A stretch of DNA of 64,000 nucleotides from a virus. Lineage: Duplodnaviria > Caudoviricetes. The position numbers were made by a program, and so were the translations under genes. Shown in pieces: positions 56,520 through 57,571 of this stretch; positions within the stretch are counted from its first letter, which is position 1; the number at the start of each line of letters is the position of its first letter. Under the pieces are notes generated by a model that ran no database searches, was not told the origin of the DNA, and saw only the letters and a list, made by a program, of their open reading frames with translations. The stretch covers positions 128,001 through 192,000 of IMG/VR virus record IMGVR_UViG_3300046786_000293. One strand, 5' to 3'.

Positions 56520-56578
56520 GTGTAATCTTTCTGTAATCTCCTTGTCATTAAATAATTGTAATTAACAAGGAGATTACA
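56520..56578 (+). promoter_or_regulatory. Pho box (three half-sites, 11-bp period) + late promoter + 14-bp RBS-sequestering hairpin upstream of pstS
   Basis: GTGTAAT/CTGTAAT/TTGTCAT at 56520/56531/56542; TAAATA at 56549; TGTAATCTCCTTGT/ACAAGGAGATTACA. Confidence 0.8.
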
Positions 56579-57571
56579 TTGAAAAAATTATTTGCAATTA
56601 TACTAACGGCGTTATCTGTTACAGTACACGCACAAGACATTACCGGAGCCGGGGCAACATTCCCGGCTCCTTTGTATTCAAAATGGGCAGAGTCTTATAA
56701 TAAAGCTACTGGTACTCGAGTCAACTATCAAAGCGTAGGAAGTGGCGCTGGCATTAATCAAATTAAAGCAAAAACTGTTTTATTTGGCGCAAGTGACATG
56801 CCGTTAAAAGACGAACAACTTACAGAAATGGGAGTGTTTCAGTTTCCTACTGCGATAGGTGGTGTTGTTCCTGTGATTAATGTTAAAGGAATTGAACCAG
56901 GTAGTATGCGTTTAACTGGTTCCTTAATAGCAGACATTTATCTAGGAAAAATTAAAAAGTGGAACGATACTGCTATTGTAGCGTTAAATCCTAAACTAGC
57001 ACTTCCCGATCAAGATATTGTTGTTGTACGTCGTGCTGACGGGTCAGGTACTACTTTTATTTGGACTAACTATCTAAGCAAAGTTAACAAAGAATTTAGT
57101 GATACCATTGGAGCAGGAACCGCAGTTAATTGGAAAGTTGGTGCAGGTGGCAAAGGCAACGAAGGTGTAGCTCAAATGGTCAGACAACTACCAGGTACAT
57201 TAGGCTATGTTGAATATGCTTATGTTAAACAAACTAAAATGAATTGGGTAAATGTACAAAATGCCGCAAATAATTGGGTAGCTCCTACGGAAGATTCTTT
57301 TAAAGCAGCGGCTGCTGGAGCAGATTGGAACAAGACATATTATCAAATATTAACCAATCAACAAGGAAAAGATGCTTGGCCTATTACTGGTGCTACCTTT
57401 GTGTTAGTGTACATTAAACCGGCCGATCCAGACAAAGCCAAAGGTGTAACTAAATTCTTTGATTGGGCGTTTACCAATGGTGACAAGGCCGCTGATGATT
57501 TGGACTATGTTGCATTGCCTGATACAGTAAAAACTAAAATTCGAGCAGATTGGCGACGTTTAGGATTATAA
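56579..57571 (+). CDS. pstS: phosphate ABC transporter substrate-binding protein
   Basis: signal peptide, GAGATFP, SVGSGAG, RRADGSGTT, GKGNEGV, GYVE, WPI motifs; TTG start. Confidence 0.95.
   Translation: MKKLFAIILTALSVTVHAQDITGAGATFPAPLYSKWAESYNKATGTRVNYQSVGSGAGINQIKAKTVLFGASDMPLKDEQLTEMGVFQFPTAIGGVVPVINVKGIEPGSMRLTGSLIADIYLGKIKKWNDTAIVALNPKLALPDQDIVVVRRADGSGTTFIWTNYLSKVNKEFSDTIGAGTAVNWKVGAGGKGNEGVAQMVRQLPGTLGYVEYAYVKQTKMNWVNVQNAANNWVAPTEDSFKAAAAGADWNKTYYQILTNQQGKDAWPITGATFVLVYIKPADPDKAKGVTKFFDWAFTNGDKAADDLDYVALPDTVKTKIRADWRRLGL

Follow-up and report, generated by a model that had tools for sequence, protein, structure and literature searches.

A putative Pho box, a candidate late promoter and a predicted ribosome-site hairpin overlap in the pstS leader of a jumbo phage

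Phosphate-uptake genes carried by phages are textbook auxiliary metabolic genes, and to our knowledge work on their regulation has been confined almost entirely to cyanophages from the sea. Here we analyze the leader of a phage pstS gene that lies in a stretch of 64,000 nucleotides (the window), bases 128001 to 192000 of the 338,510-bp virus record IMGVR_UViG_3300046786_000293; coordinates are those of the window unless the whole record (G000) is named. In one of the closest described systems the host regulators PhoB/PhoR control cyanophage pstS through an upstream Pho box, as documented for P-SSM2 and for the phosphate response of S-PM2d (PMC10976474). The site recognized by PhoB is defined as two 11-bp direct repeats, 22 bp in all (PMC3978041). 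A second precedent comes from T4 gene e and I-TevI/mobE, where a hairpin in the long early transcripts buries the ribosome site, and a gp55-type late promoter located in or beside the 5′ strand of that structure gives rise to late transcripts that lack the strand and are translated (PMC3014915).

The pstS leader resembles both of these systems and departs from both. As in the cyanophages, a phage-borne pstS appears to be placed under the host phosphate-starvation regulator by an upstream Pho box, but cyanobacterial Pho boxes are PyTTAAPyPy(T/A) 8-mers with 3-bp linkers, whereas the box found here is of the proteobacterial CTGTCAT type with 7-bp repeats and 4-bp spacers, and no overlap with a late promoter or a ribosome-site hairpin is described for the cyanophage system (PMC10976474). 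The cyanophage setting on which the original prediction drew is not borne out, as both PstS and its Pho box are of proteobacterial (Burkholderiales) type; the protein is 58–67% identical to Burkholderiales PstS and 55–57% to enterobacterial PstS, and only about 37% identical to that of cyanophages. Sheath, baseplate, portal-region and major head genes of T4-like kind are encoded in the window, whose GC content is about 0.40; the phage is a T4-like jumbo phage and not a cyanophage. Relatives derive from freshwater metagenomes, and the host is probably a betaproteobacterium. The likeness to T4 gene e and I-TevI lies in the position of TAAATA in a hairpin loop, of the Shine-Dalgarno (SD) sequence in the 3′ arm, and in the lack of a terminator against co-directional transcription from upstream. 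The differences from T4 are the core motif, which is TAAATA and not TATAAATA; the gene, which is an auxiliary metabolic gene and not one for lysis or homing; the 5′ arm, which here would double as a host activator site; and the phage itself, a distant 338-kb jumbo relative.

Each of the layers is known, namely PhoB control of phage pstS, gp55-type late promoters, and relief of a ribosome site by a late promoter, and it is their overlapping combination that appears to be new. Literature searches found no description of such an overlap in one element, as the original prediction had supposed, and none of a jumbo-phage pstS with a Pho box of proteobacterial type. The three uses first proposed for these bases are partly supported by comparison with relatives, and we assign the composite reading as a whole a probability of roughly 0.55.

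Layout of the leader and anatomy of the Pho box

The arrangement initially read from the window holds in each of its parts (Table 1). Three half-sites, GTGTAAT (56520–56526), CTGTAAT (56531–56537) and TTGTCAT, recur with an exact period of 11 bp. The 5′ arm TGTAATCTCCTTGT and the 3′ arm ACAAGGAGATTACA make up an inverted repeat of 14 bp without mismatch; the 3′ arm holds the SD sequence AAGGAG (56567–56572) and adjoins the TTG start codon at 56579, and TAAATA sits within the 19-nt loop (56546–56564). A search for the three-half-site pattern finds one instance in the window, where 100 shuffles give an expectation of 0.00, and no second one in the 338.5-kb genome. No other perfect inverted repeat of the genome with a loop of 3–40 nt is as long as this 14-bp one, and by our own estimate about 0.08 such repeats per genome would be expected by chance. 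The leader RNA folds at −27.1 kcal/mol (z = −5.45), a value that 0 of 200 shuffles equal, and no Rfam family covers it. A fourth TGTAAY-like motif, TTGTAAT at 56556–56562 and TTGTG-TAAC or TTGTGAAC in relatives, is conserved 1–8 nt past TAAATA, close to where transcription is predicted to start; lying 14 bp after the third half-site, it does not share the phase of the array.

Table 1. Features of the pstS leader and its surroundings (window coordinates)
Feature	Position	Strand	Remarks
Sigma-70-like promoter, TAGACT-16-TATAAT	55569..55596	+	Consensus match only, 10/12; before the tRNA; likely early source of read-through
tRNA, CUA anticodon (amber-reading)	55606..55679	+	ARAGORN; Rfam tRNA, 36.1 bits; heads the co-directional unit
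TAAATA box before the 252-aa open reading frame	55683..55688	+	Candidate late promoter; transcripts would enter the pstS leader
Co-directional open reading frame, 252 aa	55761..56519	+	C-terminal zinc ribbon; TGA stop adjoins the Pho box
Putative Pho box, two 7-bp direct repeats GTGTAAT/CTGTAAT	56520..56537	+	4-bp spacer CTTT; conserved in 32 non-redundant relatives
Hairpin 5′ arm (anti-SD arm)	56532..56545	+	Made of half-site 2, CTCC spacer and TTGT
Third half-site-like heptamer TTGTCAT	56542..56548	+	In phase with the first two; fills the gap between Pho box and TAAATA
TAAATA in hairpin loop	56549..56554	+	Read as −10 of a PhoB-dependent promoter and as gp55-type late core; fixed spacing from the Pho box in relatives
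Predicted transcription start zone	56559..56563	+	5–9 nt past TAAATA, in the loop, downstream of the 5′ arm; from promoter geometry
Hairpin 3′ arm	56565..56578	+	Includes SD AAGGAG; start codon follows directly
pstS	56579..57571	+	330 aa, TTG start, signal peptide; Burkholderiales-type periplasmic phosphate-binding protein
Intrinsic terminator closing the pstS unit	57623..57642	+	8-bp stem, then T run

For comparison, leaders were taken from viral contigs and assemblies encoding PstS 46–100% identical to that of the window. Fifty-three leaders (32 non-redundant) have two xTGTMAY repeats with an 11-bp period, followed by TAAATA at a distance from the Pho box of 11 nt in 28 of the 32 non-redundant cases and 10 nt in 4; the sequence of this gap is free to vary while its length is held. 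The invariance of the repeat cores is in part a matter of ascertainment because the leaders were selected with a pattern, yet nearly all relatives above 65% identity fit that pattern. Conservation bears out the first two of the three half-sites originally assigned to the Pho box, whereas the third heptamer is weakly conserved among relatives (consensus TTGTgnT).

Bacterial promoters provide a second point of reference. The pstS promoters of Burkholderiales contain, on the coding strand, CTGTCAY-N4-CTGTCAY, then 10 nt and a TAnnnT hexamer. In the phage leader two 7-bp repeats separated by a 4-bp spacer likewise occupy the place of the −35, in most leaders 11 nt before the putative −10, and have the orientation of the gene, much as in promoters of the Burkholderiales and E. 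coli type, where at least two CTGTCAY repeats of 11-bp period replace the −35 and the −10 follows some 10 bp later. In its repeats and their spacing the phage element is thus built like a Pho promoter of a host pstS. It differs from the bacterial promoters in that its half-sites are TGTAAY-rich, most leaders have a spacing of 11 instead of 10 bp, the hexamer in the −10 place is the late core TAAATA where bacteria have TAnnnT, and the box would be transcribed as an anti-SD arm. On these comparisons the Pho box is very likely functional, and TAAATA is likely to be the −10 of a Pho promoter.

TAAATA as a late core and the hairpin around it

T4-type late promoters consist of an AT-rich −10-like motif without a −35, depend on gp33 and the gp45 sliding clamp as co-activators, and give transcripts that start 6–8 nt past the motif. 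In a de novo k-mer analysis of the upstream intergenic DNA of the genome, no hexamer comes near TAAATA in enrichment (41 observed, 3.5 expected, 11.7-fold), and ATAAATA is enriched 26.6-fold. The hexamer peaks 18–30 nt before start codons; at the structural genes of the window, the major head gene among them, it lies 21–33 nt ahead of the start. The major-head site TTAAATAA shares flanks with that of pstS. A gp55-like late sigma is encoded on the minus strand at about 207019–207720 of the record (phrog_12791, E = 4e-64; phrog_234, E = 9e-23) and matches T4 gp55 at E = 2e-6 and 29% identity; the protein is also encoded, at 59–76% identity, by four related pstS-carrying jumbo phages of 260–354 kb. 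The enrichment, the gp55-like sigma and the sites at structural genes together argue that TAAATA is the late-promoter core of this phage. The late promoter of the original prediction gains support with TAAATA as the phage's own core; the T4 octamer TATAAATA was rejected in this role, since it is not enriched, with just 12 copies in 338 kb. Phage pstS leaders almost always have TAAATA, whereas bacterial Pho −10 hexamers end in T, and we judge the chances somewhat better than even that the pstS TAAATA also serves as a late promoter. A search of the genome with the T4 gp45 protein found nothing, and a homologue may be too distant to be recognized in this way. Enrichment of TAAATA in the short flanks of the relatives' pstS loci was unconvincing after the pstS sites themselves had been discounted.

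At the level of sequence, co-directional transcription from upstream would enter the pstS leader, as a terminator scan between 56519 and 56579 found none. In the predicted folds of transcripts coming from upstream, the unpaired probability of the SD is 0.00 and opening the initiation region costs 15–17 kcal/mol; in those of transcripts starting at 56559–56563 the SD is mostly open and the cost falls to 1.8 kcal/mol. By its geometry, the placement of the promoter would make its own transcripts miss the 5′ strand, and from these models it is fairly likely that the hairpin acts as a translational lock on read-through RNA. The idea that starts within the loop relieve the ribosome site is in this respect consistent with both geometry and energetics; it is qualified by the occurrence of the lock in only some lineages and by modest covariation.

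Several relatives retain pairing despite sequence change. The leader of L056 (94% PstS identity) keeps all 14 pairs with one G-C changed to G-U, and those of L057–59 (88%) have 16 pairs including one U-G. Among leaders of distant PstS, a G-C pair of the stem is replaced by A-U in L234, and in L164 the SD has become GGAAAG and is matched by CTTTCC in the 5′ arm. L062 (85% PstS identity) has a different 10-bp anti-SD directly before TAAATA, while in its sisters L061 and L063 the pairing involves the start codon instead. Cognate arms pair at −8.41 kcal/mol and non-cognate arms at −6.30 kcal/mol (permutation p < 5e-5, phylogeny ignored), and slid registers of the pstS leader stem are 35–60% paired. 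RNAalifold predicted no structure for 12 leaders aligned with MAFFT, as indels put the 3′ arms out of register. A pattern scan of metagenomes returned mostly unrelated AT-rich matches, with PstS encoded at 4 of 120 loci, and contigs from four sequencing runs contained one L056-like variant and no new arm variants. As a separate observation, when pstS start codons of the window, L056, L057, L234, L002, L016 and L045 are compared with those of other loci, TTG or GTG starts occur in 7 of 12 leaders with a strong lock, and ATG in about 18 of 20 with a weak lock or none; this bias may reflect phylogenetic inertia or a second layer that lowers basal translation.

The same design is found at other genes of the phage. 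Among 47 TAAATA boxes located 18–45 nt before the starts of open reading frames in the whole genome, 9, with pstS counted in, are preceded by a segment that can pair with the initiation region beyond the box (duplex at or below −13.4 kcal/mol), and a fold z of −2.9 or lower is reached by 8 of these 47 boxes compared with 3 of 395 genes without a box (about 1%). Two further perfect inverted repeats, ranked second and third in the genome, are likewise hairpins around TAAATA at translation starts. One 13-bp perfect hairpin, GAATAGTCCTGTT / AACAGGACTATTC, lies at 25568–25607 on the minus strand upstream of the gene at 24378–25565, with TAAATA in a 14-nt loop; its 3′ arm takes in the SD and stops 2 nt short of the ATG. 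Orthologues of this gene in three related jumbo phages (the protein identities are 76% and 48%) are also preceded by a TAAATA-topped hairpin with the SD in its 3′ arm, and the stem sequences are unrelated despite the kept architecture. Further boxes whose upstream flanks are complementary to translation starts, with duplexes of −13 to −21 kcal/mol, are located in the window at about 52129–52190 (gene 50500–52128, minus strand) and 23317–23380 (gene 20038–23316, minus strand), and in G000 at 261877–261940, 333988–334060, 17146–17210, 24005–24041 and 78500–78560.

A composite model and its alternatives

In the model that we propose, the Pho box at 56520–56537 would stand in for a −35 element 11 bp before TAAATA, and phosphorylated PhoB would recruit host RNA polymerase under phosphate starvation. 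Late in infection the gp55-like sigma would read the same TAAATA, and if the hexamer is the phage's late core too, pstS would also be transcribed late, whatever the phosphate status. Both routes would start at about 56559–56563 in the hairpin loop and produce short transcripts without the 5′ arm, in which the ribosome site is open. Read-through transcripts, presumed to come from the sigma-70-like promoter upstream of the tRNA and from the box at 55683, would carry both arms; on such RNA the hairpin would bury the SD and so prevent translation, as it does for T4 gene e and I-TevI. PhoB binding, the identity of the polymerase that uses TAAATA, the start sites and the translational effect are parts of the model that we infer. 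Tentatively, one 60-bp element may in this way join a host nutrient signal to the phage clock, the same bases serving as PhoB site and anti-SD arm and the same hexamer as sigma-70/PhoB −10 and gp55-type promoter, such that PstS would be made early only in phosphate-starved hosts and late always, with read-through RNA silent. In a bolder version host PhoB would act as a stimulator of the gp55-like holoenzyme too, and the strictly kept spacing of TAAATA would then be explained.

If correct, the model suggests that freshwater jumbo phages infecting betaproteobacteria have also tied pstS to the host phosphate regulon, and that a late promoter and a T4-style lock have been overlaid on the same bases, a compact multi-layer coding within a viral leader. 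It further suggests that the logic of T4 gene e is a family-wide design in distant phages of 260–350 kb. The 60-bp element would also offer a mutable object for testing how a virus joins host physiological sensing with its own temporal program.

A number of observations weigh against this model. TAAATA ends in A and not in T as the sigma-70 −10 hexamer does, and it lies 1 bp farther from the Pho box than the −10 of bacterial promoters; as a late promoter its flanks are weak with respect to the phage consensus (score 10.0, range 5.9–18.6). Many relatives (L001, L007, L012, L014, L032–35 and L042) lack a significant stem although both Pho box and TAAATA are present. On a covariance-model-guided alignment, with phylogeny ignored, 78.7% of cells are paired compared with 76.4% in shuffles (27 of 1000 reach the observed value), and the covariation score is 0.179 compared with 0.148 (44 of 1000). 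Because the arms are also bound by their roles as Pho box and SD, covariation is limited and conserved complementarity is partly confounded. A role for the lock as a substitute for an upstream terminator is unsupported, strong locks being present in 2 of the 9 leaders that have such a terminator and in 11 of the 23 that do not. The sequencing runs containing this sequence include no RNA run.

In the alternative that fares best among those considered, only a PhoB-dependent host-type promoter works, TAAATA is its −10, and the hairpin is a lineage-specific by-product, without regulatory role, of chance complementarity between two conserved motifs, TGTAAT of the Pho box and ATTACA located between SD and start. 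In keeping with it, GGAGATTACA before the start and the TGTAAT half-sites are each widely conserved even without a strong stem, and, as noted, a significant lock is missing in many relatives and covariation is modest. However, the stem runs through bases outside the motifs (CTCC-TTGT with ACAA-GG), and motif complementarity does not readily account for the longest perfect inverted repeat of the genome. Close relatives keep the stem by wobble or compensatory changes, L164 and L062 use other anti-SD solutions, and the design recurs at about nine TAAATA genes compared with about 1% of controls. We consider this alternative unlikely.

The converse possibility is that pstS is a T4-style late gene with a ribosome-site lock only, and that the Pho box is an inactive relic of a captured host promoter. 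TAAATA does correspond to the late core of the phage and not to the TAnnnT of bacteria, a lock of this kind is typical for late genes of the phage, and a published study cautions that Pho boxes identified in silico in phages are unreliable predictors (PMC10976474). Nevertheless, a relic should decay, whereas the half-site cores and their spacing from TAAATA are invariant across about 50–100% PstS identity while flanks and spacers diverge. The half-site array is moreover unique in the genome and located exactly at pstS, and some lineages (L032–35, L044) have three or four in-phase repeats. This possibility seems quite improbable.

Least probable, and only a slight possibility, is that the hairpin acts on the upstream message, as a terminator, attenuator or 3′-end stabilizer for the 252-aa open reading frame or as an RNase III-type site: it does lie directly past the upstream stop codon, and in many relatives this place is taken by a GC-rich terminator. 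An intrinsic terminator was rejected in view of the absence of a U tract past the stem (UUGAAAAAA), the 19-nt loop and the AT-rich stem (36% GC), which the terminator scan does not flag; a 14-bp stem is short for RNase III, and the position of the 3′ arm, exactly at the SD and adjoining the start, also weighs against this reading.

Surroundings of pstS

The TAAATA box at 55683 directly follows the CUA tRNA at the head of the co-directional unit. The product of pstS matches PBP_like_2 (E = 2e-35) and phrog_5385 (E = 4e-68), and a blastn search of the phage collection with the pstS locus gave no match. A GC-rich 10-bp hairpin with a T-rich tail at 56645–56670, 66 nt into the pstS coding region, received a terminator-like flag; the coding sequence of the conserved motif GAGATFPAPLY overlaps it, and it may be a coincidence or an internal attenuator. 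In this phage family pstS sits in a variable island of host-like genes (L056–L064; 57891–60034 in the window), where its neighbors include genes for TerC, AhpC/peroxiredoxin (58839–59384), BPL_N, P-II, OmpA-like and CMD-domain proteins, and an HNH nuclease is encoded nearby at 58469–58813.

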